64,000 nt of DNA. Origin: a virus. Its lineage: Duplodnaviria; Caudoviricetes. The stretch covers positions 352,001-416,000 of the IMG/VR virus record IMGVR_UViG_3300037484_000435; one strand, written 5' to 3'. Position numbers and translations under genes: made by a program. Under the pieces are notes generated by a model. That model was not told the origin of the DNA. It worked only from the letters and a program-made list of their open reading frames with translations, and ran no database searches. This document shows, piece after piece, positions 43,920-62,125 of the stretch (positions are counted from its first letter, which is position 1; each line of letters starts with the position of its first letter).

Positions 43920-44987
43920 ATGGAAAGATTTAAGATGTTAAATAATTTTGAGAAGGCTGCGGAGTCGTTTGACAAAATCAATGACTTGTTGGTATCAGAG
44001 CCTTTGAGTGACTACATTAATAAATGTGTAAAAGAAGATTCTCTATTTAGAACAATATGTAGCGTAGATCTCGACCCCGAATTAGACCGTGAGGGGTCTA
44101 ACGCTCTTTATGAGCTACCTATAAATGAAGTATCAATTTGGACATTACCTGGACTAGGCTACGTGGCCAAAGACTCAATAGAACTTGGAGAGGAAGCCCC
44201 AATTCCACTATTCTCTATATCGGCAGCCCGAGATTGGCCTTATAAGTATATGACCTCTGGTAGGGAAGACATTATACTTCGAGCCGGAAAATCGGTTGCC
44301 AAAATGATAACAGATTATGAGGACGAGGCGGGATTTAGGACAATTATACCTAGTGTTACCACAAGTTTTGGAGGAGCAGGGGTATTAACACCACGTCCAG
44401 CACATTTATATGAGATGCCAGCAGGTGATCCGGCAGCGGGGTATTTCTCTAAAGAGCTTATCAATCGAATGATTGTCGGGGCAGCACGGTCTGGGCAAAC
44501 TTTAAAAACATTATGGATATCCCCAGAAGATATGGCTGATATGCGTGAGTATACTGATCGAGATGTTGACCCAGTAACACGCCGAGAAATATTTCAGGCA
44601 GCTGGACTGGGCAAAGTATGGGGTATCACTTTTAGGGTTGTACCTCAACTCGGCGTCCGAGGTAAATTTAATATAGATGGCCACACCTCGAAAGGACTTA
44701 TAACCTGTAACGAAATAGGTAGGTATAATGATTACGCCGTCACCCACCCAAATATAAGAGACGAAAATGAAAACCTTCAGGTTGCTGGAGAGTCCCAGAT
44801 TTATGCGTTTTCTGCGGATATAGAGAAAATTTTTGTGATGCCTGTAGCAGAAAAATATACTGCTAGGTGGGATTATGCCTTAACCCGCCGACAACGGGCT
44901 GGATTCTATGGTTGGCAACGCATGGGTATGGGCCTGTTGGAACGAAACCATATTTATATGGGAATTATTGACAGGTATACACCATAA
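43920..44987 (+). CDS. Major-capsid-protein-like (HK97-fold) paralog 1, outside the head operon
   Basis: LPGLGYV, F.I.AA.DW..KY...R.DI, YEDEAG, ISPEDMADMREY, WD..L.RR...GFYGWQ.MGMG...MGIIDR; clear paralog of 61049..62125. Confidence 0.7.
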   Translation: MERFKMLNNFEKAAESFDKINDLLVSEPLSDYINKCVKEDSLFRTICSVDLDPELDREGSNALYELPINEVSIWTLPGLGYVAKDSIELGEEAPIPLFSISAARDWPYKYMTSGREDIILRAGKSVAKMITDYEDEAGFRTIIPSVTTSFGGAGVLTPRPAHLYEMPAGDPAAGYFSKELINRMIVGAARSGQTLKTLWISPEDMADMREYTDRDVDPVTRREIFQAAGLGKVWGITFRVVPQLGVRGKFNIDGHTSKGLITCNEIGRYNDYAVTHPNIRDENENLQVAGESQIYAFSADIEKIFVMPVAEKYTARWDYALTRRQRAGFYGWQRMGMGLLERNHIYMGIIDRYTP

Positions 44988-45000
44988 TAAGGAAAAAAAC

Positions 45001-45177
45001 ATGGCTTATTTAACGGAAGTAGTTTTACAGATAACTATTATTATGACTTTCCTTTGTATGTTTTGCAAAGGATTCTTGTATTACCGGTATCCAAGAATCT
45101 GTACACTTCTAACATTAAGTATTATTTATGGCTGTCTGCCTGCGTTACTGGCCGTCGCAATACTAGGAGCACTTTAG
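45001..45177 (+). CDS. Small two-TM membrane protein
   Basis: MAYLTEVVLQITIIMTFLCMFC...; AAGGA SD. Confidence 0.55.
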   Translation: MAYLTEVVLQITIIMTFLCMFCKGFLYYRYPRICTLLTLSIIYGCLPALLAVAILGAL

Positions 45178-45207
45178 AGATTGATTTGTGTACTAGTTAT
45201 AGTATAG
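45175..45207 (+). promoter_or_regulatory. Conserved-spacer promoter motif, copy D
   Basis: TAGAGA-TTGA-TTTGTGTACTA-GT-TATAGT upstream of 45271. Confidence 0.65.
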
Positions 45208-45270
45208 AACAACTAATTCAGGGGGAGCAAAGCCCCCTCGAATTATACATATTAAAAAAAGGAAAAAGAA

Positions 45271-45495
45271 ATGAGTATCCTACTGTATCTTGATGAGAGT
45301 GAACTTTCACTTATATTCAAATCCCTGCGATATCTAAGCAACTATGAGGCATCAGAAGAATTATTAAGTCTCAGGTTGAAGTTAGGTTTATTACATGGGG
45401 ATTTAGATCAGGAGGATTACGATGGACCAACAGTCAATTCAAATGATGCAGATGGTGATATCTCAACTGAACAATTTGAAGATGATGGTGACTAA
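45271..45495 (+). CDS. Hypothetical protein with acidic tail
   Basis: ORF track. Confidence 0.55.
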   Translation: MSILLYLDESELSLIFKSLRYLSNYEASEELLSLRLKLGLLHGDLDQEDYDGPTVNSNDADGDISTEQFEDDGD

Positions 45496-45643
45496 TCAGG
45501 TAGGACAATTGGTGCAAATGTTAGAACAACAAATATCGATTGTGACACCACCCAGTCTACCAACACCTACACCGCAACCGCCCACAACGGGGCCACAACC
45601 ACCTTCAGGCATCCCACCGGGCACGCCGCCGTCAGGTATATGA
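45485..45643 (+). CDS. Small proline-rich protein
   Basis: MVTNQVGQLVQMLEQQISIVTPPSLPTPTPQPPTTGPQPPSGIPPGTPPSGI. Confidence 0.45.
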   Translation: MVTNQVGQLVQMLEQQISIVTPPSLPTPTPQPPTTGPQPPSGIPPGTPPSGI

Positions 45644-45683
45644 CCGACGACGGGACAGCCCTTCTGGAGGAAGGGAGAGCACA

Positions 45684-45866
45684 ATGTTTTTTCGGACGGC
45701 AAGAGAATGCTTGTCTGACCTGTTATTTATTGTGAGCATAGTGGTACTAATTGAGGTATGCCTCTGGGCTATCACATTAGTACCATTTTTGCAATCAGGA
45801 ATAATAGCAATGTTCATAGGACAGGCATATCTTATGGGTTATAAGGACGGGCAATTATATGAGTAG
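45684..45866 (+). CDS. Small two-TM membrane protein
   Basis: Hydrophobic; GGAGG upstream. Confidence 0.5.
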   Translation: MFFRTARECLSDLLFIVSIVVLIEVCLWAITLVPFLQSGIIAMFIGQAYLMGYKDGQLYE

Positions 45867-46056
45867 TTCTGAACCTAAAAGACAGTGCCCGTTTCAAATA
45901 AATTATCGTTGCACCATAAAGTGTGAATGGTTTGACACAAAAAACGACCACTGTCTTATGTGGTCCTTCCATAATAAAGTGGCCGAGTTTGTTACCATCA
46001 TTCAGGATTACATTTCCACACAGATGAAGATCCGAGCAGGACGAGACTCAGAGTAG
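45859..46056 (+). CDS. Small Cys-rich protein
   Basis: CPF...C...C.W....C. Confidence 0.55.
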   Translation: MSSSEPKRQCPFQINYRCTIKCEWFDTKNDHCLMWSFHNKVAEFVTIIQDYISTQMKIRAGRDSE

Positions 46057-46071
46057 TCCTCGCGGGGGTTA

Positions 46072-46692
46072 TTGGTGAAAAAAACTATTTGTATAGTTTT
46101 GACTCTATTGCTATTAGTGTCGTGTGCCCACGCACCAAAAAAGGTTGAAGCAGACAAAACTATTAAACCAAAACAAGTTATCACAAAACAACCCCCGCCC
46201 AAGAAAAAACAAAATTTAGAACTTTTATTCCCTGTTAGAGGTGCCTATATAAGTTCGGAATTCGGGGGTAGAAAGGGCACTTATCACCGAGGAGTTGATT
46301 TGGCCGCTGCTATTGGGACCCCAATAAGAGCTTGTGCAAGCGGAAAAGTAATTGCTTCTGGGAGATATAAGTTTCTTACTGGGTATGGAAATGCCATACT
46401 CCTGAGTCATGGAGATAGGGTTTTCACCTATTATGCCCATCTGCACACTTTGAAAGTAAGCAAGGGTAATATGGTGAACCGAGGAGAAGTAATAGGGACA
46501 GTAGGAAATACTGGAAAAAGCAATGGCCCACATTTACACTTGGAACTCATAATACATGACAAAAACCACAACCCAGTTCCTTACTTCTTCATCGATAACT
46601 CCATAACAACTTCGGCCATGCTGTGGTTAAAGGGAGTAAAAAAATCAGTAGCGACTGGTTTGGGATTAAAGAGGTTAATAGGAGACTGGTAA
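46072..46692 (+). CDS. M23-family peptidoglycan endopeptidase lipoprotein
   Basis: Lipobox LLLVSC; HRGVD, YAHL and GPHLHLE zinc motifs. Confidence 0.9.
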   Translation: MVKKTICIVLTLLLLVSCAHAPKKVEADKTIKPKQVITKQPPPKKKQNLELLFPVRGAYISSEFGGRKGTYHRGVDLAAAIGTPIRACASGKVIASGRYKFLTGYGNAILLSHGDRVFTYYAHLHTLKVSKGNMVNRGEVIGTVGNTGKSNGPHLHLELIIHDKNHNPVPYFFIDNSITTSAMLWLKGVKKSVATGLGLKRLIGDW

Positions 46693-46934
46693 TGTGTGAT
46701 TTATTTAAAGATGGATACTGTGGGAATACACTTACTGAAAAACAATTAGAGGAGCTAGTCCTGTATACTGATGGTGACGGTCCTCAAATCTGTGTGCGTA
46801 ATGACGAAGAAACAAACAAAGAACTCAAACGGATACACGAGGAAAGCGTTAAAAAATATGGCACCTGTATAGCAGACCACACGAGTGTAGAAGATGTGGT
46901 TATTGTAGAGGAAGATGACGGGTATTGTGATTAA
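46692..46934 (+). CDS. Hypothetical acidic Cys-containing protein
   Basis: TAATG coupling; MCDLFKDGYCG... Confidence 0.5.
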   Translation: MCDLFKDGYCGNTLTEKQLEELVLYTDGDGPQICVRNDEETNKELKRIHEESVKKYGTCIADHTSVEDVVIVEEDDGYCD

Positions 46935-46957
46935 GGAGCGGGCATGATACCCGCTCC
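46935..46957. terminator. Likely bidirectional terminator between convergent genes
   Basis: GGAGCGGG-catgata-CCCGCTCC perfect 8-bp stem. Confidence 0.65.
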
Positions 46958-46968
46958 ATGGAAAGAGG

Positions 46969-47502
46969 TTAAGAATCTGAGACTTTAATGTCAATTTGTC
47001 TGGTGGGGTTTTCAACTGCGGGGGTATCCTCTTCAAAGAGGCCTTTCAGCCGAACAATGAGGATACCGTTTTTCAGATCAGCGTCGATGTCATCATTACC
47101 TCCAGTACGTTTTTGCCATGCAGCATACAATTTTGAATCAATTGGGAAGGAACGTCTGAAGTTAGACCTAAAAAGCTCTTTTCTATAGTAGCAACGATCC
47201 TCAACCTCTCGCTCGGTATCGGCACTTCCTGAAATGGTGAGCATACCGTTTTGGAGTTCAACCTTCAAGTTCTCTGGCTTAACATTAGAAATAGCAGCTT
47301 CAACGACAAGGTCTGCCTTATCTTTATAAGCATCTACTCTTGGGTAAGCCCTAGATTTTACTGAGTCGAACTTTAGTGGTTTTAAATCTGAGAAGAACTC
47401 AGTCATCAGTGAGTCAAATAAAGACTCGATCGGGGTGAAAAATTCATCCTTGATCATTGGAAAATTTTGGAACGTTTTTGGAATCATAAGATTTCCAGCC
47501 AT
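46969..47502 (-). CDS. Small heat-shock protein (Hsp20/alpha-crystallin)
   Basis: YPRVDAY, LVVEAAI..VKPENLKVEL..GMLTISG, EL.RSNFRRSF, ADLKNGILIVRL; GGAGG SD before the ATG at 47502. Confidence 0.9.
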   Translation of the reverse strand: MAGNLMIPKTFQNFPMIKDEFFTPIESLFDSLMTEFFSDLKPLKFDSVKSRAYPRVDAYKDKADLVVEAAISNVKPENLKVELQNGMLTISGSADTEREVEDRCYYRKELFRSNFRRSFPIDSKLYAAWQKRTGGNDDIDADLKNGILIVRLKGLFEEDTPAVENPTRQIDIKVSDS

Positions 47503-47561
47503 GGTACACCTCCGTGTTACCTTGAGTATTTGGTGCACATTTAAGCGTCACCGTGTTTTTA

Positions 47562-47589
47562 TTAGACACCCATCCTTATACTGGGTTCC
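47562..47589 (-). promoter_or_regulatory. ECF-sigma-type promoter for Hsp20
   Basis: GGAACCC-N16-TCTAA on the minus strand, preceded by AAAAACTTTTTT. Confidence 0.65.
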
Positions 47590-47608
47590 AAAAAAGTTTT
47601 TATAGGCG

Positions 47609-47636
47609 GGAACAATAAAATCTACCCGTTGTCTAA
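47609..47636 (+). promoter_or_regulatory. ECF-sigma-type promoter, divergent partner
   Basis: GGAACAA-N16-TCTAA upstream of the ATG at 47663. Confidence 0.65.
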
Positions 47637-47662
47637 CAATACAAATAAAAAGGAGATGCAGT

Positions 47663-47881
47663 ATGCGTTGTCCCGGACAAGACACCCGCTTTTGGCAACC
47701 TGGGGATATTTATGAAGTTTCATGTCCTCAGTGTGGAACGAAAATGGAATTTTTTAAAGACGACACTAGACGCACGTGTAAATCATGTGGACAAATTATT
47801 AGGAATCCGAAATTAGATGTAGGGTGTGCAGAGCATTGCCCTTTCGCTTCCGACTGCCTAGGAGTTTTACCAAAGGAATAG
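47663..47881 (+). CDS. Cys-rich zinc-ribbon protein (CPGQD...CPxCG...EFFKDD...CxxC...GCxxxC)
   Basis: Motif I associate with small proteins and HD-domain N-termini of Desulfobacterota; AGGAG SD. Confidence 0.6.
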   Translation: MRCPGQDTRFWQPGDIYEVSCPQCGTKMEFFKDDTRRTCKSCGQIIRNPKLDVGCAEHCPFASDCLGVLPKE

Positions 47882-47885
47882 CTCG

Positions 47886-48248
47886 ATGTTACGCTCAAAA
47901 TTGTTTACACTACTTGTGTTGCTGATTTGTGCTCCATTACTAATAGGTTGGACTTCTTTAGGTGTAGTAGAGCCATCTATGAGAGAGTTGGGCTTCAAAT
48001 TAAAGAAAAAAGAACAGATTAAGATTCCTTATACAGATCGAACCGAGACCAGATATACCTTTACACACAGGATACATCGTCTCGTAATAATAGATGAATA
48101 CCATAACGGTTTTATAGAAATTAGGGCTAATTATAAGGCAGGTAGTAAGGACCCTAACCAATGGAACCTCACTGTGAGACGGACAGTAGAACCTGATGCA
48201 TTTAGAGACACAATTTATCGTATATTTGTCTTAGGAGACACTAGGTGA
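47886..48248 (+). CDS. Hypothetical exported protein
   Basis: N-terminal signal-like hydrophobic segment. Confidence 0.55.
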   Translation: MLRSKLFTLLVLLICAPLLIGWTSLGVVEPSMRELGFKLKKKEQIKIPYTDRTETRYTFTHRIHRLVIIDEYHNGFIEIRANYKAGSKDPNQWNLTVRRTVEPDAFRDTIYRIFVLGDTR

Positions 48249-48517
48249 ACTTAAAAATAATAGTAATTTCATGTATTATATTGGTGATTGGTTCAATATG
48301 TTATGGAGCTATAAATCCGAACCCATTAGTAATAAGTAAATATGAACCAGACGTTGTGATTTTTGACCTTGATTACGATCTGCCAGATTTATCCCTAAAT
48401 TACATTACACCCGCTGATAAAACAACATCTATACTTGATTTGTTGTTTTGGGTGGGTTTATTTGGTATGTATATGATAGTTATTCTAGATATGACGTTTA
48501 GAGGAGACATAAGATGA
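48245..48517 (+). CDS. Small membrane protein
   Basis: Two hydrophobic segments. Confidence 0.55.
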   Translation: MNLKIIVISCIILVIGSICYGAINPNPLVISKYEPDVVIFDLDYDLPDLSLNYITPADKTTSILDLLFWVGLFGMYMIVILDMTFRGDIR

Positions 48518-48699
48518 CAAAATGCCCGTTATGCAAAGAAAGTAAATATATTAGATATACCCCTCTCCGTATGAAAGGGAAAGTGTTAACTTATATTGGG
48601 TGTACTAAATGTTGCTACTGTAAATTAATCAAAGAAGAAATGGACCCTACTAAGATAGAGGACTTAAAAGAAAGGAACAAGGGACAAATCTATGCTTAA
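48514..48699 (+). CDS. Small zinc-ribbon protein
   Basis: CPLC...CTKCCYC. Confidence 0.55.
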   Translation: MTKCPLCKESKYIRYTPLRMKGKVLTYIGCTKCCYCKLIKEEMDPTKIEDLKERNKGQIYA

Positions 48700-48928
48700 A
48701 GATAATGCTAAAAAATTAATCAAAACCTTAGATGACGTAGGACGCGGCGAGAAAAGATTACTTTTAGCTGCGTTAATGACACATACTTTATCAAGAACAA
48801 ATCCGATTTCAGACACAGATACGTATTTATACCGCCTGTGTAATTGTTTTGAAATACTGAGTAATACTGATTACCTAGAAAAACAATTTAAACGCAGTAA
48901 AAACTTTTCAAATAGTGAGGATGAATAG
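48692..48928 (+). CDS. Hypothetical protein
   Basis: ORF track. Confidence 0.5.
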   Translation: MLKDNAKKLIKTLDDVGRGEKRLLLAALMTHTLSRTNPISDTDTYLYRLCNCFEILSNTDYLEKQFKRSKNFSNSEDE

Positions 48929-49179
48929 TGTCTTGGGATGATTACAAAATACAAGATTTTAGAGTGGCACTCAAAAAATTCTACAAGGACCAAATAAGTT
49001 TAGATTATGATTCTCTAGCCAGCATAGCGACAGAAATCATAACCGATGATTTAGTAGAGGATTTAAAACAATTCGAATTTAATGATTCTATCTTGGCCGC
49101 TTTCGCAAACGGATTAGTGATAGGGCTGTTAGTTGCCGAAACCAAATACAAACCGAAAGACCCACTAATCAAACACTAG
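48928..49179 (+). CDS. Hypothetical protein
   Basis: ORF track. Confidence 0.5.
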   Translation: MSWDDYKIQDFRVALKKFYKDQISLDYDSLASIATEIITDDLVEDLKQFEFNDSILAAFANGLVIGLLVAETKYKPKDPLIKH

Positions 49180-49188
49180 GAACACGAC

Positions 49189-49485
49189 ATGACTGAAGAA
49201 GAGATAATGATGAAGGCTAAGGACCGTGTCGGGGTAACACCACAATTACTAAAGTTAGCGGAAGAAGCTAATGAGTTGGGGGCCTCAATATTACGTTTTA
49301 CAAATCGGGCCCCGTGGTCTCGTCCCGAAGAAACTCTCTTTATGGAGATGCTCGAAGAACTTATGGATGTGGATTTGATGGTAAAACAAGTCAAACTTTA
49401 TTTAGACGACGAAGTTTTAGGTTTAATTAGAAGAAAAAAACTTGATTGCTACGAAAACAGGGTGATAAGTTTGGAAAAACCGTAG
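49189..49485 (+). CDS. MazG-like nucleotide pyrophosphohydrolase domain protein
   Basis: KLAEEANEL...EELMDV all-alpha NTP-PPase pattern. Confidence 0.65.
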   Translation: MTEEEIMMKAKDRVGVTPQLLKLAEEANELGASILRFTNRAPWSRPEETLFMEMLEELMDVDLMVKQVKLYLDDEVLGLIRRKKLDCYENRVISLEKP

Positions 49486-49486
49486 T

Positions 49487-49801
49487 ATGAATAAATTACT
49501 AATAATAATAACAATACTAAGTCTGCTTTTTTCGTTTACTCTGCTAGTAAAAGAATACCAAACAGTAGAACGCTGGCAAGAAAAGGGTTTGAAACTTTAC
49601 AACAAAAAATTGCAGGACTTCAATAGTTGGAAGACATGTGTCGACCCAGGCAAGCCAGAGAAGTGGTTAACCGCTAACCCTGTATTTATTTCCCTAAAAA
49701 CTTGGGTAGAGATGCTAAGCAATTTGGCCTCCCTAATTATAGCCATTTCTAGCCTAGGAGTTTATACACGACTAAAAAGACAAAAGGCAGAAAAGACATG
49801 A
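49487..49801 (+). CDS. Membrane protein
   Basis: N- and C-terminal hydrophobic helices. Confidence 0.55.
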   Translation: MNKLLIIITILSLLFSFTLLVKEYQTVERWQEKGLKLYNKKLQDFNSWKTCVDPGKPEKWLTANPVFISLKTWVEMLSNLASLIIAISSLGVYTRLKRQKAEKT

Positions 49802-50673
49802 TCGAAATAATACGAGAAACAATACAAAACGAAAAACAAATACAATATGTTATAACTAGTCTAAACGGGGAAACTTGTTACCAAGAAAATTTTACAGTAG
49901 AAAGGTTTACACAAAAAGCTACTGTTCCTGGTAACCTCTATGACCGCGGCGTAACTGGGTGTGTAAAAAAAATTAATGAACAGTTTGATCGTGAATTAAA
50001 TTGGCTTATAATCAAGAAGTTAACTGAGTTACCTACTGCAGCTCGAATAATGGTGGATATACCACTGGATGAATTTGACACCCACTCGATAGTGTCATTA
50101 CTGTTAAAATACTACCCTAGTGGCAGACGAGAGTCGTTAAGGATAATTTGTTCACCAAGTAATTTTCGGGTGTTAGAAAAGGCGGTAATGAGTGATACCT
50201 CTATGTACGGTTCTTTCGCGTTTTCTAAAACTGTGTTGGAAGTCAAAGTAGAGGTAGAAGATATACCAGAAAACGAGATCTGGATTATTGATTTAGAGTC
50301 TTGGCGTGCACCCATATCTGTACCCTCTAATAGTGTAAATTACGAACCCCGAAGTAAATCTTATATTTACACTAGGAGTTATCGGATGGGTAGGCCAATT
50401 TGTGTGGGTGAGAAATTGATTCGAGTGAGACTACAGACTGAGGACCCTATGGAAAGAACGATGCAAGAATTATTGGACAAAATGCGTCTTCCACTAAGAA
50501 AGACAGACAAACCCCCTATTCCTTTGGGCAAATCTGTGTGGTTGACAGGAAACCCCGACGAAGGTATTCGGGTAACTAACAATGTCCCTACAGTAACGGT
50601 TAGCCTCAAAGAAACACCACAAATGTTTAACCCTAGTATGCCAGTTGACTTGAAAACCAAGAAGAAGAAATAA
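49798..50673 (+). CDS. Hypothetical protein
   Basis: 291-aa ORF; no motif recognised. Confidence 0.6.
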   Translation: MIEIIRETIQNEKQIQYVITSLNGETCYQENFTVERFTQKATVPGNLYDRGVTGCVKKINEQFDRELNWLIIKKLTELPTAARIMVDIPLDEFDTHSIVSLLLKYYPSGRRESLRIICSPSNFRVLEKAVMSDTSMYGSFAFSKTVLEVKVEVEDIPENEIWIIDLESWRAPISVPSNSVNYEPRSKSYIYTRSYRMGRPICVGEKLIRVRLQTEDPMERTMQELLDKMRLPLRKTDKPPIPLGKSVWLTGNPDEGIRVTNNVPTVTVSLKETPQMFNPSMPVDLKTKKKK

Positions 50674-50913
50674 ATGTGTTGGGTTTATTTGTTAGAGTGT
50701 TCCGACAAAACCTATTACTGTGGAGCCACCAAAAATATTGTAAGGCGAATCGATCTACACAACACAGGTAAAGGGGCAAAATACACTAAAAGTAGACGCC
50801 CAGTAAAACTTGTGTGGTCTAAAGAGTGTGGCTCTTACCGCGATGCTCTAAAAGAGGAGTGGAGGATTAAGCACTTGAAAAGAAAGGAAAAAGAGGCTCT
50901 CATAAATAATTAA
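50674..50913 (+). CDS. GIY-YIG nuclease (UPF0213/YhbQ-like)
   Basis: WVYLLECSD.TYYCGAT.N..RR...HN.GKGAKYT..RRPV.LV...A.KEE..IK. Confidence 0.9.
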   Translation: MCWVYLLECSDKTYYCGATKNIVRRIDLHNTGKGAKYTKSRRPVKLVWSKECGSYRDALKEEWRIKHLKRKEKEALINN

Positions 50914-50962
50914 CGTACTTCCTACTGGGGAATTAATGAAACCTTAGGATGGATTACAACAC

Positions 50963-52513
50963 ATGGATATAGATTTTAGAGACCCTGTGGAACGATTTTC
51001 CTTCATCTCCCTGCTTACCGGCCAAGTTATATATGACTATAATGTTACCACAGGAAAAATTGAGTGGTATGGGGCGGTAGAACAGGTCACAGGTTATAGT
51101 TTAAAAGCATTTAATGCTAAAGTAGATATACATAACTGGGCACAACTATTACACCTCGAAGATCGTGATAAAGCTCTGAGGTTATTGTTGGAAGCTTCAA
51201 CAAACAAAACTCAATACAATACTACTTATAGATTACGTAGAAAAGACAGTACCTATACCTACATAGAAGATGTAGGGTCATTCTTTTACGGGCCCGATGA
51301 CACTCCAGTCAGAATGTTAGGGGTTATGAAAGATATTACGGATGCAAGAAAAACACAACGTATGCTGATCCGAACTGAGAGACTTAAATCTATTGCTGAG
51401 CTTTCTGCTGGAGTATCTCATAATTTCAATAATGTGTTACAAGCGATTTTGGGGTGCACCCAAGTAGCAATGCTGGAACTTGAAAAAAATAATATACCCG
51501 GCACTATGGACTTACTCAAAAAAATTCTGGATAATTGCAACACAGGGGCCCGCACAGTAAGTAGACTGCAATCTTTTTCTTGTGCTAAAGAAGATTCCCC
51601 CGCACCTTGCGATGAGACTATAGATGTGTCCCAAGTTATAAAAAAATGTATTGATATGAGTGAACCTCGTTGGAAAACTATGCCAGAAAAGAGGGGCATA
51701 TTTATCGAAGTAAAAACATCTTTAGAAAAAAATCTGACCGTTAAGATGAAAGAGAGTGATTTAGTTGAGGTAATAATGAACTTAACTAATAATGCAGTTG
51801 ACGCAATGCCCTTTGGTGGAACACTTGCTTTCCGCACATTTCTAGACACTGAATTTAATTCTGTGGCTATCGAAGTAGTTGATACAGGAACAGGAATAGC
51901 AGATGTCAATAAGTCTTATATCTTTGAACCTTTTTGGACAACCAAAGGAAAAGAAGGTACAGGGTTAGGGCTAGCCTCTAGTTTTGGTATTATTTCATCT
52001 TATCAGGGGTCTATCAATTTAGAGAGCTCAGAAGGTAAAGGAACTAGTTTTAAAATTCTACTACCACAGGCCTCGGAGGGCCCAGAGGGCCAACCTTATT
52101 TAGACACAGTTGTCATGAATAAGGTGCTTAAGATATTAGTTATTGATGACCAAGAAACGATAGCAGAACTTTATGCTAAAGGGTTGGAGATGTTAGGGCA
52201 CGAGACCTATTCAGCCACCTCAGGCATTGAGGGTCTACCAATCTTTTATAGTAAACAACCAGACGTAATAATTTGTGACCTGACAATGCCAGAAATGAAT
52301 GGTTGGCAAATTGGTAACGTAATACAAGAGTATGTGGCTAGTTATCACATTAAAAAACCATTATTTATTATGTTGACTGGGTGGGGTATCTCAGATGAAC
52401 TAGAAGAGATAGAAAAGTCTGGGGTGGATATAATCCTACAAAAACCTACTGACTTAAAAACACTAGTGTCTGAAATTAGCAAGGCACTTAAGTTACAAAA
52501 GGAAATAAAATGA
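50963..52513 (+). CDS. Hybrid sensor histidine kinase PAS-HisKA-HATPase-REC
   Basis: PAS_3 (LHLEDR, YRLRRKD), H-box GVSHNFNN, N-box NNAVDAM, DTGTGI, FEPFWTTK, GTGLGL; receiver IDD...CDLTMP...TG...KP. Confidence 0.95.
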   Translation: MDIDFRDPVERFSFISLLTGQVIYDYNVTTGKIEWYGAVEQVTGYSLKAFNAKVDIHNWAQLLHLEDRDKALRLLLEASTNKTQYNTTYRLRRKDSTYTYIEDVGSFFYGPDDTPVRMLGVMKDITDARKTQRMLIRTERLKSIAELSAGVSHNFNNVLQAILGCTQVAMLELEKNNIPGTMDLLKKILDNCNTGARTVSRLQSFSCAKEDSPAPCDETIDVSQVIKKCIDMSEPRWKTMPEKRGIFIEVKTSLEKNLTVKMKESDLVEVIMNLTNNAVDAMPFGGTLAFRTFLDTEFNSVAIEVVDTGTGIADVNKSYIFEPFWTTKGKEGTGLGLASSFGIISSYQGSINLESSEGKGTSFKILLPQASEGPEGQPYLDTVVMNKVLKILVIDDQETIAELYAKGLEMLGHETYSATSGIEGLPIFYSKQPDVIICDLTMPEMNGWQIGNVIQEYVASYHIKKPLFIMLTGWGISDELEEIEKSGVDIILQKPTDLKTLVSEISKALKLQKEIK

Positions 52514-52662: not shown

Positions 52663-52664
52663 GC

Positions 52665-53267
52665 ATGAAACAAACATTAGTCCCGATTGTCATTGAGAAA
52701 ACTAGCAAGGGCGAGAGATCGTATGATATATATTCTAGACTCCTGAAAGAGCGTATCATCTTTTTGGGCACAGGTATAGATGATGATGTGGCCAATCTGA
52801 TAGTTGCTCAAATGTTATTTTTGGAAAGTGAGTCACCTGATAAAGATATTTATCTATATATTAATTCCCCGGGCGGGCATGTTACTTCGGGGATGTCTAT
52901 CTACGATACCATGCAATACATAACACCAGACATACAAACCATCTGTATGGGTCAAGCTGCCTCCATGGGATCGTTACTATTGGCCGCAGGTACCGCAGGA
53001 AAACGATTTGCTCTTCCTAACGCCCGTATAATGATACACCAAGTTATGGGGGGCACCAGTGGCCAGGCAACAGATATAGAAATACACGCAAAAGAAATCC
53101 TGAGAGTTAAAGACCAACTAACAAATATTTTATCACAGCACACTGGTAAGCCGTTTGACCAAGTTAAACAAGATTCGGAACGTGATAATTTTATGTCACC
53201 CCAAGAAGCTTTGGATTACGGACTTATCGACCAGATAATTACCAAGAGGAGTCTTCCTAAAGCATGA
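52665..53267 (+). CDS. clpP: ATP-dependent Clp protease proteolytic subunit
   Basis: [41 protein letters not shown]: intact Ser-His-Asp triad. Confidence 0.97.
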
Positions 53268-54335: not shown

Positions 54336-54336
54336 G

Positions 54337-54846: not shown

Positions 54847-54942
54847 TTAAATAATCAACCGGGCTTCGGCCCCCTTCCAATTTTTCAGTTAGATGTTTGA
54901 AAACGCTATCCTCCCTAACCCAAAATAAATTTAGGATTTAAT

Positions 54943-55110: not shown

Positions 55111-55394
55111 TGGCTGAATGTAGTGATTGTGATAAGCTGGGGAATTTTAATAAACTCCAGAAGATTACGTGGCATCTCTTGGAAATCACCGAGCTGATAG
55201 GTGAAGAGATACCTATTGTCTTCTTGCCCAGATGGGCCGACCCTGGAAAGGACCCGCTTAAAGGTAAAACATGTTTGATAGTTAGGAATCAGGATTTTAG
55301 ACAAGAACTGGAAAATATATATGGCTACGTCATGGACGGCATGAAGGATTTCGATGAGATAGAAAAACAGAAAAAAGAAGGAGGACTACACTAA
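55110..55394 (+). CDS. Hypothetical protein
   Basis: ORF track. Confidence 0.55.
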   Translation: MAECSDCDKLGNFNKLQKITWHLLEITELIGEEIPIVFLPRWADPGKDPLKGKTCLIVRNQDFRQELENIYGYVMDGMKDFDEIEKQKKEGGLH

Positions 55395-55892
55395 ATGGAC
55401 CCAACGAGACTAATGCAGACAGTTTATCCCGAAGAAACAGGCCTTACAATTAGGCAAGGACAAGTCGAACTAACTTGGGTTAAAGTGCATTCCTACGGGC
55501 AACATTTACTTATAAAAACCTATCTGCAGACAGACGAAGAAGCTGGTGGAAGAGCAGAGAATAGACGAGCAATGTTAGTAATGTTAGAAGGACAATCTTA
55601 TTACCACAATGGAGTGGAAGGTATCTACGAGAATGTGGGGGATTGTGAAAAAGCACCGCGTGAATTTGCTATAAGAACTCTGCTTATCAAAAGTCAATCT
55701 GACTTCCTTGACGCAAGGGGAGACTGGGATTATGAGAAATTAGTAAAAAGGAACATGCATGACAATTTGGATATGGTTATTTCCACCAACGGTAAGGCGA
55801 CCAACCTTAAGTCCTTTAGAAAAGGCCCGCGAGAAGGTAGATGGCTTACTTTTGAGGAGATTTCTACTTTGATGGGGTGTAAAAGTGGATGA
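55395..55892 (+). CDS. Hypothetical protein
   Basis: GGAGG SD. Confidence 0.6.
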   Translation: MDPTRLMQTVYPEETGLTIRQGQVELTWVKVHSYGQHLLIKTYLQTDEEAGGRAENRRAMLVMLEGQSYYHNGVEGIYENVGDCEKAPREFAIRTLLIKSQSDFLDARGDWDYEKLVKRNMHDNLDMVISTNGKATNLKSFRKGPREGRWLTFEEISTLMGCKSG

Positions 55893-56142
55893 TTACTTTT
55901 ATATCAGAGTCTGTGAAAGATGGGGATATGACAACTTGTGTGTAGCCGAACAACAAATAGACCCTAATACAGGAAGGTTTATCGATATAGAAGTTTACCA
56001 ATATGACCCCAATAGGTTCCGTGCCCTATATGAATACGCACACACACGCTATTCCACCTACTCTTCAGAAGACACGGAGTCAATGATTCAATTAAGATAC
56101 CCTAATAAAATTTGGGTGCTTAGGAGAAGAAACATCAAGTAG
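55885..56142 (+). CDS. Hypothetical protein
   Basis: ORF track. Confidence 0.5.
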   Translation: MDDYFYIRVCERWGYDNLCVAEQQIDPNTGRFIDIEVYQYDPNRFRALYEYAHTRYSTYSSEDTESMIQLRYPNKIWVLRRRNIK

Positions 56143-56210
56143 GAAAATAAAATTAACTAGCCTCCTGTGATAAATAAATGCTAATTACATATCTACAGGA
56201 GTAAGGAAAG

Positions 56211-57194
56211 ATGGAACAATCAAAAAACGTAAAGTGGTCTCTGGATGAAATCAACTTACTAAAGCAGCTATATCCTAATCCAAAAAATAAACAACAAATC
56301 TTAGAATTATTGCCACACAGAACGTGGGGAAGTATAAGGACTGAGTCCTACAAGTTGGGCGTAACTATGGAGAAACCCACTAAATGTTTATTAGACTTCT
56401 CAAACATAGATTCTGAAGAAAAAGCTTATATACTAGGATTTATAGCGGCGGACGGATTTATTTCCAATACAAATAAACAGTTTAATTGCTGGGTTTTAGG
56501 AATACAAATAGCAGAAAAAGATTTAATTTTATTAAGGCAAATAAGAGATTTATTGAACCCCAATCTTAAATTGAGTTGTACACATTACGCAGATAAACCT
56601 AATTGGTCAGATTGTTACAGATTAACAATGTATGATAATAAATTATGTAATGACCTCAAGGCACACGGAATTACGGAAAATAAAAGTAAAACATTGACAC
56701 CCTCAAATGGAATACCAGAGGAACTTATCCACCATTATATTCGTGGATATTTTGATGGAGACGGCAGTTTCTGGATTCGGAAGGGAGACGGTCGTCTCTA
56801 TGCTGGGTTTGCTGGAAGTGAATCTATGATGAATTATATATCAACTTGGTTCAAACAACAATATAAACATGAGTGTACCTTACGGAAGAAAGAAGGATGT
56901 TATTTGTTAACTTATTGTGGATTTACTGCGATCAATTTAGCTAAACTTCTATACTCCGATGCTACTATATATTTAGAAAGAAAATATTTAAGAGCAGCGA
57001 AGTTCTTCGATAAGGAACGACAAGAGCATATAATAGACAAATTAAATGGAGACAATATATGTAAATTATATAAAGAGCTGGGAACATGGACAAAAGTTGC
57101 TGAATATTTAGGAGTTAATGTAAGTTATATATCACGAATAAAAGATGGAAAACGAGGTAAAATAGGAAAACTTAATTGTGACAAGTTTAATTAA
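56211..57194 (+). CDS. LAGLIDADG homing endonuclease with N-terminal Myb-like repeat and C-terminal HTH
   Basis: YILGFIAADG and YIRGYFDGDG; KWSLDEINLL repeat; C-terminal ICKLYKELGTWTKVAEYLGVN. Confidence 0.9.
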   Translation: MEQSKNVKWSLDEINLLKQLYPNPKNKQQILELLPHRTWGSIRTESYKLGVTMEKPTKCLLDFSNIDSEEKAYILGFIAADGFISNTNKQFNCWVLGIQIAEKDLILLRQIRDLLNPNLKLSCTHYADKPNWSDCYRLTMYDNKLCNDLKAHGITENKSKTLTPSNGIPEELIHHYIRGYFDGDGSFWIRKGDGRLYAGFAGSESMMNYISTWFKQQYKHECTLRKKEGCYLLTYCGFTAINLAKLLYSDATIYLERKYLRAAKFFDKERQEHIIDKLNGDNICKLYKELGTWTKVAEYLGVNVSYISRIKDGKRGKIGKLNCDKFN

Positions 57195-57717
57195 AAACAA
57201 TATAGGAAGACCCTGTCTTGTAACAGTCGGAGGTCCTCAAGCTTCGGGCAAAACAACTTGGTCTGAAAATTTTTTAACACAAAATCCTAATTTTGTGTAT
57301 ATATGTTCAGACCTATATTGGCCTGTGGACCAACAGGGCCAACGCTACTGGACAGACGACAGCGGAACGAGGAAATGTTGGTATTCGGACCCATTGCCGT
57401 CAGAACTGAAAGAGAGGGCGTATTCGTGGGCACATAAAAAAATGCTGGCTTACATGGATGTTGGGGATGATATTTTATTTGAAGGGACCTTAGTGGATAA
57501 GCACACTAGGAGGAACTTGTTATATGACGCGTGGATGAGTGGTTACGAGGTTCACGGTATATTTTTATTACCCTCATTGTTGGTTTGTGCCCAAAGGAAT
57601 TCTAAGCGAGCCCACCCTGTGCCTGATGTGGTTTTGGCCCGCACCTACGCTAAGGTAGAAGTGCCAGAGGAAGAGGAAGGCTTTGCTACTTTAGAAATAA
57701 GGAAAATGGAAAAGTAA
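57178..57717 (+). CDS. P-loop kinase (AAA_33 / polynucleotide-kinase-like)
   Basis: GGPQASGKTTW, ILFEGT, CAQRNSKR..VP..V. Confidence 0.8.
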   Translation: MTSLIKNNIGRPCLVTVGGPQASGKTTWSENFLTQNPNFVYICSDLYWPVDQQGQRYWTDDSGTRKCWYSDPLPSELKERAYSWAHKKMLAYMDVGDDILFEGTLVDKHTRRNLLYDAWMSGYEVHGIFLLPSLLVCAQRNSKRAHPVPDVVLARTYAKVEVPEEEEGFATLEIRKMEK

Positions 57718-57718
57718 A

Positions 57719-57967
57719 ATGGCAGATAGAACGTCAGCAGGATTATTCGGAAATATATTTGAATATATTGTAGGACACACCGAAATGGATGTAGAGGATT
57801 TCATAAAGTGGTTATGGAAACAACAAGAGAACTATGACTTTAGTCCTTATCAGATGGGGTGCGATGATGCTCTGTTAGAATTAGGATTAGCTAAATATAT
57901 TAAGAAAGACGATTTTGATATTATAATATTCAAAGGAGATGAAAGATGGGACGAACAGAATACCTAG
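57719..57967 (+). CDS. Hypothetical protein
   Basis: ORF track. Confidence 0.55.
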   Translation: MADRTSAGLFGNIFEYIVGHTEMDVEDFIKWLWKQQENYDFSPYQMGCDDALLELGLAKYIKKDDFDIIIFKGDERWDEQNT

Positions 57968-58155
57968 TAGAGTGTTTATCAAACTTGGGACATGTCTTTG
58001 AACAGTCGGTCGGCATTTGGTTGGATGAAGGTGCGGAACGAAAGGCAATGCTAGTAATAAATGATAAACAACTATTCGAAGATTTTCAAAGGATTGTGGA
58101 AGCAATTAAAACTGGGGTTCATCCGACTATGCAAGCTGACCCACGAATTAAGTAA
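57946..58155 (+). CDS. Hypothetical protein
   Basis: ORF track. Confidence 0.45.
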   Translation: MGRTEYLVECLSNLGHVFEQSVGIWLDEGAERKAMLVINDKQLFEDFQRIVEAIKTGVHPTMQADPRIK

Positions 58156-58398
58156 ATGAAAGTAGACATATCGACAGTTATTAAACAAGATGATTTTATC
58201 CAAGGGTTTAAAAATGGCTTCTCACAGATTGAGGCTAAATATGGGTGGATATGTCCTAAGTGCGGAGAATATGTTTACAACTTTGCAATAGAAACATTTA
58301 GTCACTACAATCGTGACCCCGCTTTTAGAGACACTGTCATAACCAGAAGTATCGAAATGCCCGAATCTTGGGTATGTGAGGAATGCAAGAAGAAATGA
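58156..58398 (+). CDS. Small zinc-ribbon protein
   Basis: CPKCG...CEEC. Confidence 0.55.
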   Translation: MKVDISTVIKQDDFIQGFKNGFSQIEAKYGWICPKCGEYVYNFAIETFSHYNRDPAFRDTVITRSIEMPESWVCEECKKK

Positions 58399-58568
58399 CC
58401 AGTAAATATATGGAACGTGAAGAACTATTGAAATGGGTATGGAATAAAATTCGACCTAAAGCTCCATACTGTAATATTTTGGATGAAGACCAAAAAGCCT
58501 ACGATACTATAAAAAATATCCTTATGAATGAAAGAGGGGAGCCACTAGAGGACTCCCCCACAGATTAA
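58395..58568 (+). CDS. Hypothetical protein
   Basis: Probable start MTSKY at 58395. Confidence 0.45.
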   Translation: MTSKYMEREELLKWVWNKIRPKAPYCNILDEDQKAYDTIKNILMNERGEPLEDSPTD

Positions 58569-58735
58569 CAACAACCGTCAGCACAGGAAGGACATAGGTC
58601 TCGGCAGAATTCTTTAACCATTTCTTGTTTAACCCTTTCTCTCCGAGCCTGTGCATCTAGGTTGTCAAAGTCTTCAGGCTTTAAACCTAGGTTTTTGTAA
58701 AGTTTAGAGTATTTTTCAAGGTGTTCGTCTTTCAT
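58565..58735 (-). CDS. 56-aa antisense-island protein with Cys-rich tail
   Basis: Hand translation MKDEHLEKYSKLYKNLGLKPEDFDNLDAQARRERVKQEMVKEFCRDLCPSCADGCC; AGGAG SD. Confidence 0.6.
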   Translation of the reverse strand: MKDEHLEKYSKLYKNLGLKPEDFDNLDAQARRERVKQEMVKEFCRDLCPSCADGCC

Positions 58736-58744
58736 ATTACGCTC

Positions 58745-58906
58745 CTAGCCCATATAGCATTCAGTGCATACGCAACGGGGATTCCACTCCCAGTTCCAAA
58801 AATTGCACTCTTCTTGTAGGACATCTTCCTGTCCTTCGCTTTGCTGATCGGGCTCCCGAGCCAAGACATCCCTTGATTCCCAATGTTCTTCTGTGTATTC
58901 GTTCAT
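58745..58906 (-). CDS. 53-aa acidic antisense-island protein with Trp/Cys-rich tail
   Basis: Hand translation MNEYTEEHWESRDVLAREPDQQSEGQEDVLQEECNFWNWEWNPRCVCTECYMG; GGAGG SD. Confidence 0.6.
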   Translation of the reverse strand: MNEYTEEHWESRDVLAREPDQQSEGQEDVLQEECNFWNWEWNPRCVCTECYMG

Positions 58907-58971
58907 GGTAATTACCTCCGCGTAAATTTACGCCTATTAACTTAGATGCCGAAGAGGCAAAAAGGATTCAA

Positions 58972-59295
58972 ATGAAAATAGAAAAAATAAAACCATTCGA
59001 AGGGAGAACAATAAAATTTGCTACCTCAGATCGAAGTAACGACTTAATATGGCGACTAGAAGACAAGATTAATGAAATAATAGATGTCTTAGATATAGAC
59101 TTGCCTGATGATTATTACAAGTGTGAATGTGGTTGTGAGTGGTTTGAGCACACACATAGACAAACCCTAATGAATCCCCCACAAGATATTGTAATATGTA
59201 GGGACTGTAAAAAACGACAGTATATATCGAAGCATAGGTTACCGAAGGCACCAAAATATAAACGCTATGGGATATGGAAGAAAAATGAGGGCTGA
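58972..59295 (+). CDS. Hypothetical zinc-ribbon protein
   Basis: CECG...CRDC. Confidence 0.55.
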   Translation: MKIEKIKPFEGRTIKFATSDRSNDLIWRLEDKINEIIDVLDIDLPDDYYKCECGCEWFEHTHRQTLMNPPQDIVICRDCKKRQYISKHRLPKAPKYKRYGIWKKNEG

Positions 59296-59497
59296 CAGAC
59301 TCGACGAATTAAACAGACAAGAAACGATAAAATGGGAGCTAGAGACGGCTGAGTGGGAAAAGAAAGCAAACAGATGTCTTTACTGTAGAGCTAAATTTGA
59401 AAGACGCTTAGCCGAAAAGAATTGTGTGGCTTGTGGGGCTAAGTTGCCTAAATATAAATGGCCCAAGGCACCCCCGCTCAGGTGGGTTGAGAAATGA
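59285..59497 (+). CDS. Small zinc-ribbon protein
   Basis: CLYC...CVACG. Confidence 0.55.
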   Translation: MRADRLDELNRQETIKWELETAEWEKKANRCLYCRAKFERRLAEKNCVACGAKLPKYKWPKAPPLRWVEK

Positions 59498-59724
59498 AAT
59501 TAAGAGATATATGCTTGGACACTTTTAAATATTTTGAAGAAGATGAGACAGAAGTAGTGTGTTACCTATACCATATTGCAGAAATAGAGGATTTGTTTAT
59601 GGTGCAGGGCGAAACTTTAAATGAACTCGCGTGGGCCCACATTAAGGGTATGGAGCCTGCGATGTTCTTTTGGGAAAGCCTTAAGAGAGGCGGAAATATA
59701 TTAGAACGAATAAGGGGAGACTAA
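59494..59724 (+). CDS. Hypothetical protein
   Basis: ORF track. Confidence 0.5.
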   Translation: MKLRDICLDTFKYFEEDETEVVCYLYHIAEIEDLFMVQGETLNELAWAHIKGMEPAMFFWESLKRGGNILERIRGD

Positions 59725-59912
59725 TGGAAGAAACAAAAAAAGAGACACCAGAAATGGGTGATCGTATGGAAGTGATAGAAAGTTTAGTTATGGATAAATT
59801 AATTGAGTCCATTAAAGCTGACTACGACGGTGGAGTTGACCGTTACGGGAGATTATTAGTAGATTTGCTTCATACGAAAGCCGCCCTAATGAAAGCATAT
59901 GGTCGGAATTAG
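59724..59912 (+). CDS. Hypothetical protein
   Basis: ORF track. Confidence 0.5.
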   Translation: MEETKKETPEMGDRMEVIESLVMDKLIESIKADYDGGVDRYGRLLVDLLHTKAALMKAYGRN

Positions 59913-59917
59913 GAAAA

Positions 59918-60490
59918 ATGCCGAAATATTTTTTTACTAGCGACACACATTTCTTTAACGAAAAAATTATGGAGCACTGTAAAAGACCCTTTAATAACGT
60001 GGAAGAAATGAATGATAAGCTAATATCTAACTGGAATAAAACAGTTTCTGTAATAGATTACGTTTACCATCTAGGTGACTTTGGTGGGAGCTCATTAATA
60101 GATAATCAGTCAGTATTTAATCAACTTAATGGACGTAAGTACCTGATAAGAGGTAACCACGATTATAGTTACACCACACCCACTGGCTGGGTCTGGGTAA
60201 AAGATACCGCCATGATAAATATTGGCGATCAGTATATTTGGTTATCTCATTATCCACATCGCCTGTGGAATAGGGCTGGGCAAGGTGTTTGGCATCTATT
60301 TGGCCATGTGCATCGAAATAAAGCAGAATACTGGCTATCGTTTAATGTTGGTGTTGATGCTTGGGACTACACCCCTATTAGTTTCGATAAGGTAAAAAAC
60401 CATATGAAGCGTCTACATTTTGAGCAAACATGTGTAGAACAACTCCCAGGTCTTTTTGATGAATACCTAATAGGAGAGGAGGAATTTTGA
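59918..60490 (+). CDS. Calcineurin-like metallophosphoesterase (phage type)
   Basis: TSDTHF, VYHLGDF, RGNHD, LSHYP, GHVH, NVGVD. Confidence 0.9.
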   Translation: MPKYFFTSDTHFFNEKIMEHCKRPFNNVEEMNDKLISNWNKTVSVIDYVYHLGDFGGSSLIDNQSVFNQLNGRKYLIRGNHDYSYTTPTGWVWVKDTAMINIGDQYIWLSHYPHRLWNRAGQGVWHLFGHVHRNKAEYWLSFNVGVDAWDYTPISFDKVKNHMKRLHFEQTCVEQLPGLFDEYLIGEEEF

Positions 60491-61038
60491 GTTTTGACTC
60501 TAAGGAAGAACATGAAGCGTGGTTAAAGGAAAGGGATTCCTACGACAAAGATTTTAAGCAACCTACAATCGAATTGGAAGTGCACCTAGGTGAGAGTGAT
60601 TATTGGCAGATACAGCGTGGCCAACGGGGACGAATCTATAAAATGCAAAATAGACTCTTGCTACTCCGTTTAGAACCATACTGGATCGTGAAGTATTATC
60701 TTGAAGGTGAACTAGAACTCGCCGCTTACTACTTAACACAAGAAGCAGCTCTATTCGAGATGGACCGAATAATGGAATTCGGTAAACATGATGAGCGAAT
60801 GGTCTGCCACTGCGGTCGTTGTAATGCTATGTTTGACGCGGGGTCAGTTGCTAATCTATGTCCTATGTGTGGGGCTGACCATAATGGCAAGGACTTCAAA
60901 GAGTATTCAGGCTGGTCAATCTGGAATCTTAAGCCCGCAGATTATGCGGCGAGCATGTATCTGGAATGGAAAGACCATCTTAAGTGGAGAAAACAGAACG
61001 GAACATTGCCAAAATGGTTTGACGAGGATTTAATGTAA
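60487..61038 (+). CDS. Hypothetical protein with zinc ribbon
   Basis: CGRC...CPMCG. Confidence 0.6.
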   Translation: MSFDSKEEHEAWLKERDSYDKDFKQPTIELEVHLGESDYWQIQRGQRGRIYKMQNRLLLLRLEPYWIVKYYLEGELELAAYYLTQEAALFEMDRIMEFGKHDERMVCHCGRCNAMFDAGSVANLCPMCGADHNGKDFKEYSGWSIWNLKPADYAASMYLEWKDHLKWRKQNGTLPKWFDEDLM

Positions 61039-61048
61039 GGAGAATAGA

Positions 61049-62125
61049 ATGGAAAAGACAAAGTATGTTGAGGAAATGAGAAGGGTTACGGAGCAAACTC
61101 GAAAAGAACAAAAAGGGGATACTTTAGAGGAAATATCAAAGTATATTCAGGACCAAACGGCTGAATACTCCTACGTGCGGAACTTGTGTGACACCGAGCC
61201 TATTACTAAATTTGAGTTGGAAACACCTATGAAAGAGCCTGCATGGCTTCTCCCCAGTCTAGGTTATGTGGGTATGGACACTTTTGAGGCTGGTGCTACT
61301 AATTTTCTTCTGGGAGTATTTTCGGTGCAAGCCGCTAAAGAGTGGCCTACCAAATATGATGAGGAAAATCGTTTTGATATTTGGGTGAAGGCATTCAATA
61401 ATACCGCGAGAGCTATAGCATCTTATGAAGTAGAAGCCTTTTTCAGATTGCTGGTGGCTATGAGCACAACACATTGTGGGGTAGGCGATGTGTGGGCAGA
61501 GTGCGGGGTTGACCCTATATACGCACCCATAGCAGAGCCAAATCCACCTGTAAAATATTGTGCAGTAGAGCTAATCCACAGGATGGCCCAGATTATGAAG
61601 AATCGTGGTGAAATTCTCGACACCGTAATTGTTGGTCCCGAGGACCTAGCCGATTTACGGGAGTATAAAGACACGGCCCCGTTAGTAGCAAAAGAACATT
61701 TCTTTACCCCAGCCGGTAAACTCTCATTCCTTATTGGGGACCAAAGTTATGATGTGCAAATAGTTGAGTGTGAGGATTTAGGTAAGAAAGGTAAATATAA
61801 TATAAACGACCAAACATCAGACTTTGGGCCTTTTATAGGACAGGCACATAAAGACAATAGTTTCAACGACTATAAAATTACTAACGGAAATGTGCTGGAT
61901 GAAAATGGCAACCTAGTTAAGGCAGGTGAAACTCAGATTTATGGTTTCAGTAAAGATGTTAAGAAATATCTTAAGATGCCTATAACCTACCCCTACACGG
62001 CTTATTGGGACCCGTATTTAAGCCGAAGAAATCAATCGGGGTACTATGGTTGGCAGAAAATGGCTATGGGCTGTCTGAGTAACCGATGTGTAGTCATGGG
62101 GATAATTGACAGAAGTAAAGACTAA
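61049..62125 (+). CDS. Major-capsid-protein-like (HK97-fold) paralog 2, outside the head operon
   Basis: LLPSLGYV, F.V.AA.EW..KY...R.DI, VGPEDLADLREY, WDPYLSRR...GYYGWQKMAMG...MGIIDR; paralog of 43920..44987. Confidence 0.7.
   Translation: MEKTKYVEEMRRVTEQTRKEQKGDTLEEISKYIQDQTAEYSYVRNLCDTEPITKFELETPMKEPAWLLPSLGYVGMDTFEAGATNFLLGVFSVQAAKEWPTKYDEENRFDIWVKAFNNTARAIASYEVEAFFRLLVAMSTTHCGVGDVWAECGVDPIYAPIAEPNPPVKYCAVELIHRMAQIMKNRGEILDTVIVGPEDLADLREYKDTAPLVAKEHFFTPAGKLSFLIGDQSYDVQIVECEDLGKKGKYNINDQTSDFGPFIGQAHKDNSFNDYKITNGNVLDENGNLVKAGETQIYGFSKDVKKYLKMPITYPYTAYWDPYLSRRNQSGYYGWQKMAMGCLSNRCVVMGIIDRSKD

Follow-up and report, generated by a model that had tools for sequence, protein, structure and literature searches.

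Two diverged paralogs of the major capsid protein encoded away from the head operon of a 545-kb phage genome

We describe two accessory genes related to the major capsid protein (MCP) gene in a 64,000-nucleotide stretch of DNA (the window) that corresponds to bases 352001-416000 of the Caudoviricetes virus record IMGVR_UViG_3300037484_000435 (G000 below). The record is 545,322 bp long and rated complete, its G+C content is 42%, and the standard bacterial code reads well; the only public run in which the stretch occurs comes from the DNA of a sediment metagenome. The left half of the window encodes, on the minus strand, the large terminase, the portal, a ClpP/crotonase-like protein, several homing endonucleases and large virion-type proteins. 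Transcription diverges at around 34.3-35.1 kb of the window, from where a plus-strand arm of mostly small genes follows, spanning 387-434 kb of the genome. Both genes lie in this arm:

43920..44987, plus strand: accessory MCP paralog A (P0001, 355 residues), an intact open reading frame (ORF) with an AlphaFold2 model and Foldseek matches
61049..62125, plus strand: accessory MCP paralog B (P0002, 358 residues), likewise an intact ORF with an AlphaFold2 model and Foldseek matches

A previous sequence-only reading of the window had proposed that these genes encode two full-length, mutually homologous proteins of about 355 residues, and both ORFs are indeed open at these coordinates, with products that align end to end in BLASTP at 36% identity across 365 columns (E = 1e-66). 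All of the motifs that it had listed as shared are found in both proteins (LP.LGYV, AA..W..KY...R.DI, PED.AD.REY, the NDY...DEN...AGE.QIY block and the C-terminal G.YGWQ.M.MG...MGIIDR). The ORF map and annotation also agree with the placement it described, with the paralogs on the plus strand amid mostly small genes, the portal, large terminase and scaffold-like gene on the minus strand, and the portal, scaffold and protease genes all remote from the paralogs. Strong Shine-Dalgarno sites precede both genes.

With respect to fold, the AlphaFold2 models, for which 70 out of 125 collected metagenomic homologs served as the input alignment, reach a mean predicted local distance difference test (pLDDT) score of 89.6 for P0001 and 92.1 for P0002. 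Each has a strand hairpin and, after it, a helix of 30 residues, resembling the E-loop and spine helix of HK97, with no domain missing. Foldseek comparison with the PDB (E <= 0.001) returned 333 matches for P0001 and 281 for P0002, led by the capsids of HK97, T5, DT57C and Kp7 at a probability of 1.0 (the best matches for P0001 being HK97, DT57C and T5), while encapsulins first appear after these phage capsids, at ranks 31 and 28, respectively. The HK97 capsid fold proposed earlier for both proteins is thus borne out by the models, on the basis of which P0001 and P0002 are HK97-fold capsid-family proteins. Neither protein has a match in Pfam or PHROGs (including Phage_capsid PF05065 and Phage_capsid_4 PF25209), and the best hit of a PDB sequence search, the phage G capsid protein gp27, is not significant (E = 0.18). 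The atlas feature neighbors of the paralogs are capsid clusters. A search for cultured relatives by tblastn of P0001 against 50,697 phage records gave no match, and an IMG/VR scan returned six loci only, all on short contigs; the relatives discussed below are all metagenomic.

A whole-genome search revealed a third full-length copy (P0128/P0003) at G000 349938-351041 on the minus strand, equivalent to window positions -2062 to -959. It lies about 1 kb past the left edge of the window, two genes after a scaffold-like gene that crosses this edge:

1..442, minus strand: scaffold-like coiled-coil gene, of which the window holds the start only; its Pfam matches are to coiled coils only

Over the full length of the alignment, this copy is 55% identical to P0001 and 47% identical to P0002. 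Its position in the head operon is where the sequence-only reading had expected a third copy, and we take it to be the major capsid protein of this phage (the canonical MCP), so that the paralogs are extra copies and neither of them is the sole MCP. The canonical MCP has weak Pfam matches of its own (Phage_capsid and Phage_capsid_4; 17.9 bits versus a cut-off of 24.2), and its 90%-identity cluster includes copies from contigs of 647,399 bp and 658,305 bp. Its codon-usage bias is the highest of the three genes (85th percentile), with the paralogs at the 43rd and 61st percentiles.

P0001 and P0002 derive by duplication from the lineage's own MCP. A profile search of 1.84 billion representative proteins yielded 240 relatives at E <= 0.001, and in a tree made by quick search, for which distant relatives served as the root, the accessory copies group in a single clade comprising 35 rows (at least 35 members or representatives) with 99% support in the Shimodaira-Hasegawa-like approximate likelihood ratio test (SH-aLRT). 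This clade is nested within the canonical family, where it forms a polytomy with the canonical subclade that holds the MCP of this genome; support for the nodes around it is 97-99%. Measured from the node that both share, canonical tips lie at path lengths of 0.19-0.43 substitutions per site and accessory tips at 0.84-2.1. The nested position is not the one that long-branch attraction would favor, as this would draw the clade toward the outgroup. As far as can be read from the protein tree, the topology and branch lengths indicate a duplication within the lineage, followed by acceleration and a split into several subfamilies. Elsewhere in the tree, a second long-branched MCP-like clade (P0148-P0170 and P0196) stands beside another canonical subclade and may represent an independent capsid-gene duplication with acceleration; for two of its members, P0151 and P0152, the longest contig has an identical length of 27,184 bp.

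The three copies are all present, and in the same syntenic places, in two relatives of 647 and 658 kb. Orthologs of paralog A (P0007 in the 647-kb genome, P0009 in the 658-kb genome) are 55% identical to P0001, and those of paralog B (P0123 and P0122, respectively) are 51-55% identical to P0002. A single 135-kb contig of the 647-kb relative carries the canonical MCP after a scaffold-like gene and both paralog orthologs on the other strand, with P0007 preceded by a PAS-sensor gene and two small genes and P0123 located between metallophosphatase-like and pyrD-like genes. A B-like copy (P0140) and a canonical MCP also occur together on one contig of 192,760 bp. None of the 12 accessory-clade contexts, among which the two in the window are counted, is next to a portal, scaffold or head protease gene. 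Since both genes are intact and syntenic in the 545-, 647- and 658-kb genomes despite ordinary proteins being only about 45-85% identical, selection appears to maintain the paralogs. The two DNA copies of P0123 are identical, and the other pairs are too diverged for a comparison of synonymous sites.

We observe a marked difference in rate between the canonical MCP and its paralogs. Among the three large genomes, canonical MCP identity is 94.2-99.4% (94.7% between this genome and the 647-kb relative), versus 55-70% for paralog A and 51-69% for paralog B. Ordinary syntenic genes show 45-78% identity between this genome and the 647-kb relative and about 50-85% between the 647- and 658-kb relatives, indicating that, in terms of sequence identity, the paralogs evolve at the pace of average accessory genes and that the canonical MCP is the outlier. 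The scaffold-like gene beside the MCP is only 67% identical, from which it follows that the near-invariance of the MCP reflects constraint on that gene and not a recent exchange of the whole module. In 48 canonical MCPs, 105 positions show conservation of at least 90%; of these, the A consensus retains 80 (76%) and the B consensus 76 (72%), and A and B have some derived states in common at such positions. Divergence of the paralogs is greatest in the N-terminal ~70 residues.

Gain and loss are also apparent in this family. The 647-kb genome encodes a member of a fourth subfamily (P0166, 315 residues, intact, 31% identical to the canonical MCP) in a gene 8 kb downstream of its paralog-B ortholog; past its spine helix, P0166 is missing about 45 residues, and the PED.AD.REY block with them. 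The counterpart in the genome described here consists of two adjacent short ORFs of 144 and 64 residues at G000 424431-425065 on the plus strand (window 72431-73065; locus L046 993-1626), one resembling the N terminus of P0166 (E = 0.001) and the other its C terminus (E = 1e-11). The accessory copies are old and syntenic across relatives, within a larger, fast-evolving clade in which copies are gained and lost, all of which the sequence-only reading had missed.

The cysteine content of these proteins also differs between subfamilies. Clade B proteins have 7-8 cysteines, compared with 2-3 in canonical and A copies, and four of them are invariant within clade B (P0002 positions 47, 171, 342 and 347). 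Cys47 is common to clades A and B, and canonical MCPs have Phe or Tyr at this position.

Regarding transcription, a promoter-like motif of about 35 nucleotides with the invariant core TTTGTGTACTA occurs in 13 copies in the genome, each oriented toward downstream genes. Four of these are in the window, at 31805 (minus), 34510 (minus), 34661 (plus) and 45185 (plus), and nine more elsewhere in G000. Two copies frame the first part of the arm:

34661..34671, plus strand: TTTGTGTACTA core heading the plus-strand arm with both paralogs, one of the oriented copies, its position kept in the 647-kb relative
45185..45195, plus strand: next TTTGTGTACTA copy, about 200 nucleotides past the stop codon of paralog A, at the same place in the relative after P0007 (L005 12010)

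Because the second of these copies follows so closely, paralog A would form the 3' end of the first unit of the arm, and a weak hairpin is found after it at 45050-45072. The following copy is at window position 68125, past paralog B. Elsewhere, the motif precedes genes for the sliding clamp, RecA, DnaB, glycosyltransferases and an epimerase, as well as a PD-(D/E)XK nuclease with a family A polymerase (PolA), and the genome-wide count found no copies in the 220-383 kb structural block with the giant ORF and the head operon. Sigma-70 pattern scans, which list the copy at 45175-45203 as TAGAGA-17-TATAGT, gave chance-level results only, and k-mer searches for a late-promoter motif returned ribosome-binding sites only. 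Taken at the level of sequence motifs, this distribution suggests that the paralogs are not transcribed together with the late head genes, internal promoters being possible.

A second element, AATTAACT followed by a hairpin, was considered as a late promoter common to the MCP operon and the unit of paralog B, and was rejected, as it marks HNH_2 and LAGLIDADG homing-endonuclease genes and its occurrences at the MCP-operon and paralog-B-unit sites are not kept in relatives. It is found 36-59 nucleotides ahead of the start codon of six HNH_2 and two LAGLIDADG homing-endonuclease genes, with sites at G000 24668, 36797, 69905, 75827, 515200 and 541809 (plus strand) and 524258 (minus strand) and at window position 56152 (plus strand). 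The element looks like a shared 5' element of mobile homing-endonuclease genes.

The immediate neighbors of the two paralogs are as follows:

43279..43899, plus strand: two small genes directly upstream of paralog A (95 residues, with a weak HNH_5 match, and 106 residues), characterized by Pfam and synteny
62125..62961, plus strand: pyrD-like gene overlapping the stop codon of paralog B, with a weak DHO_dh Pfam match (E = 0.004, below the cut-off)

The two small genes are 69% and 63% identical to syntenic genes in the 647-kb relative and lack conserved counterparts in the context of P0037, which is more distant; no adjacent partner gene of paralog A is conserved across the contexts examined. 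For paralog B, the sequence-only reading had pointed to translational coupling with the pyrD-like gene and had offered the latter as a speculative cargo. The TAATG overlap between the paralog B stop and the pyrD-like start is present, but a pyrD-like gene directly follows paralog-B members in only two contexts, here and in the 647-kb relative, is one gene off in the 658-kb relative, and is absent after P0120, P0124 and P0140. Since the neighbors of both paralogs vary across the clade, neither a cargo nor a fixed partner is supported. The earlier interpretation thus stands with respect to the HK97 fold, the extra copies and their remote placement, and falls with respect to the pyrD-like cargo.

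More than one HK97-fold MCP in a single phage has precedents. In T4, another large-headed tailed phage with a diverged HK97-fold MCP paralog, gp24 is the vertex paralog of gp23; it shows weaker conservation than the MCP, its loss or bypass is tolerated, and it demonstrates that a reduced domain is not obligatory for a vertex paralog. Unlike the arrangement described here, gene 24 adjoins gene 23 among the late head genes, whereas there are two intact copies and one remnant here, the intact ones located 44 and 61 kb off, on the other strand and behind a motif that replication genes share. To our knowledge, extra capsid-gene copies in tailed phages are known only as such vertex proteins encoded beside the main capsid gene, in T4 and in mycobacteriophage Jabs. 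In the latter, according to the preprint, which cites T4 as a further two-MCP case, MCPh builds the hexons and MCPp the 11 pentons, the two genes (ORF72 and ORF73) are adjacent, and MCPp is far shorter, its axial domain being reduced and its spine helix bent (bioRxiv 10.64898/2026.07.24.740622). P0001 and P0002, in contrast, have kept their full length and run collinear with the canonical MCP, without a large deletion, and only P0166 has a gap, of about 45 residues.

The reading that we favor, tentatively and with somewhat less than even confidence, is that the paralogs are low-copy specialized capsomer proteins that co-assemble with the canonical MCP in a very large head. They would occupy the vertices or other special lattice sites of the shell and would be supplied by transcription units outside the head operon. 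The full fold, most family-invariant residues and open frames are kept across deep divergence, which argues that HK97-type contacts and selection are still operating. Moreover, a subunit limited to one lattice environment would be expected to be less constrained than an MCP that has to fit many quasi-equivalent sites, and this would fit the rate gap. As far as we know, MCP paralogs of tailed phages have been shown to serve a structural purpose only, as penton protein. Several observations nevertheless weigh against a place in the shell. The paralogs lie far from the canonical MCP (44 and 61 kb) and on the other strand; the motif that heads their arm is otherwise found ahead of genes for replication and DNA modification, with no copy in the structural block; their codon usage is average; there are two to three copies per genome, not one, with the fourth copy broken in this genome; and P0001 and P0002 lack a reduced axial domain of the Jabs MCPp kind. 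The most diverged part of the paralogs, the N-terminal ~70 residues, is a further point, as the N-terminal part of HK97-fold capsids, on our reading of them, meets the scaffold and neighboring capsomers in other phages. The remote location, replication-class motif, codon usage, diverged N terminus, copy number and copy loss fit an intracellular accessory role about equally well.

Such a role is possible, though we rate it as less likely: the paralogs would be non-virion proteins made with early or middle genes, serving as decoys or blockers of capsid-sensing defenses or as poisons of the capsid assembly of competitors or satellites. The capsid-gene copies would then form a birth-and-death family, expressed with replication-class genes and working in the infected cell rather than in the virion. 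In line with this, they lie among small accessory genes in an arm whose heading motif also precedes replication genes, their codon usage is average, and they evolve at about the rate of ordinary accessory genes, their differences outnumbering those of the canonical MCP 6- to 50-fold for the same genome pairs. The existence of several diverging subfamilies, with two to three copies per genome and one copy lost here, points the same way, but is not decisive, since T4-like vertex paralogs are also gained and lost. The near-invariant canonical MCP may be unable to mutate away from a sensor, which also speaks for this reading; a look-alike of the trigger, however, might itself set off the sensor. 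Furthermore, the timing is deduced from the motif, no defense-related partner gene is conserved alongside, and our literature search found no phage HK97 paralog acting in this way. Selection-free drift, in which the paralogs are roleless duplicates on their way to loss, we regard as improbable. Their fast change would agree with it, as would the fourth copy, which is in pieces here and whose intact ortholog P0166 is without a conserved internal segment, but A and B are full length and open in every genome examined, across 45-85% identity of ordinary proteins, keep more than 70% of the canonical invariant positions, and belong to a clade of at least 35 members or representatives.

Two further explanations retain an assembly function for the paralogs. 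They might be alternative major shell proteins used for some hosts or conditions, altering head size or surface, possibly under the control of the sensor kinases of the arm, and we consider this quite improbable. The complete fold, with most assembly-type residues kept, would allow it, and genes for a PAS sensor and a hybrid histidine kinase are found in the same arm; nothing connects these sensors with the paralogs, however, average codon usage speaks against mass production, and the diverged N-terminal region speaks against a simple swap. Very improbable, in our judgment, are encapsulin-like compartments, in which an enzyme such as the pyrD-like protein would be enclosed by a small shell self-assembled from one or both paralogs. 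Encapsulins put the HK97 fold to use outside virions; they are found in cells, are accompanied by a cargo gene, and in some systems comprise two paralogous shell proteins. The likeness consists in the HK97 fold, with encapsulins among the structural matches, and in the TAATG coupling to the pyrD-like gene, which is adjacent in the 647-kb relative as well. Against this, phage capsids outrank encapsulins in both fold searches, the pyrD-like adjacency is not conserved and no other neighbor is conserved across the clade, and the tree places these phage proteins inside the phage's own MCP family.

If the paralogs are specialized shell subunits, as we favor, they are relevant to the construction of heads that hold half-megabase genomes; if their place of action is the cell, they would represent a new class of phage accessory protein with a structural gene as its origin, and the first case of a phage using an HK97-fold capsid paralog for a non-structural purpose. 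In contrast to T4 and Jabs, phages of the largest class here keep two or three dispersed capsid-gene copies, and the pairing of a near-frozen canonical copy with spares that change at an accessory pace amounts to a natural experiment on capsid-protein constraint. Several diverged MCP copies are also present in mimivirus and chloroviruses, which have very large capsids and in which some copies have special-vertex or unassigned roles. The MCP of these giant eukaryotic viruses is a double jelly roll from another virus realm, so the likeness is an analogy only. In the accessible portions of the literature on huge phages and megaphages, including jumbo-phage comparative genomics and phage G multi-omics, we found no description of dispersed MCP paralogs.

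Several other genes of the arm and the head operon are worth recording. The plus-strand arm contains a tRNA-Thr (GGT) gene (window 42023-42100), a triple-PAS sensor gene (42119-43279), a hybrid PAS histidine kinase with a receiver domain (50963-52513) and a ClpP of cellular type (52665-53267; E = 5e-88), and an HSP20 gene lies on the opposite strand in the same region (46969-47538, minus). The arm ClpP was considered as a second prohead protease and rejected, being of cellular type and showing no resemblance to the protease-like gene in the head operon. Homing-endonuclease genes interrupt the head operon on the minus strand at window 10062-11102, 11748-12620 and 14378-15307, and one more is found just after the canonical MCP gene (G000 348359-349525, minus strand); those in the head operon of the relative are at partly different sites. 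Outside the window, the genome search revealed an open frame of 14,712 residues around 313 kb of G000 on the minus strand.

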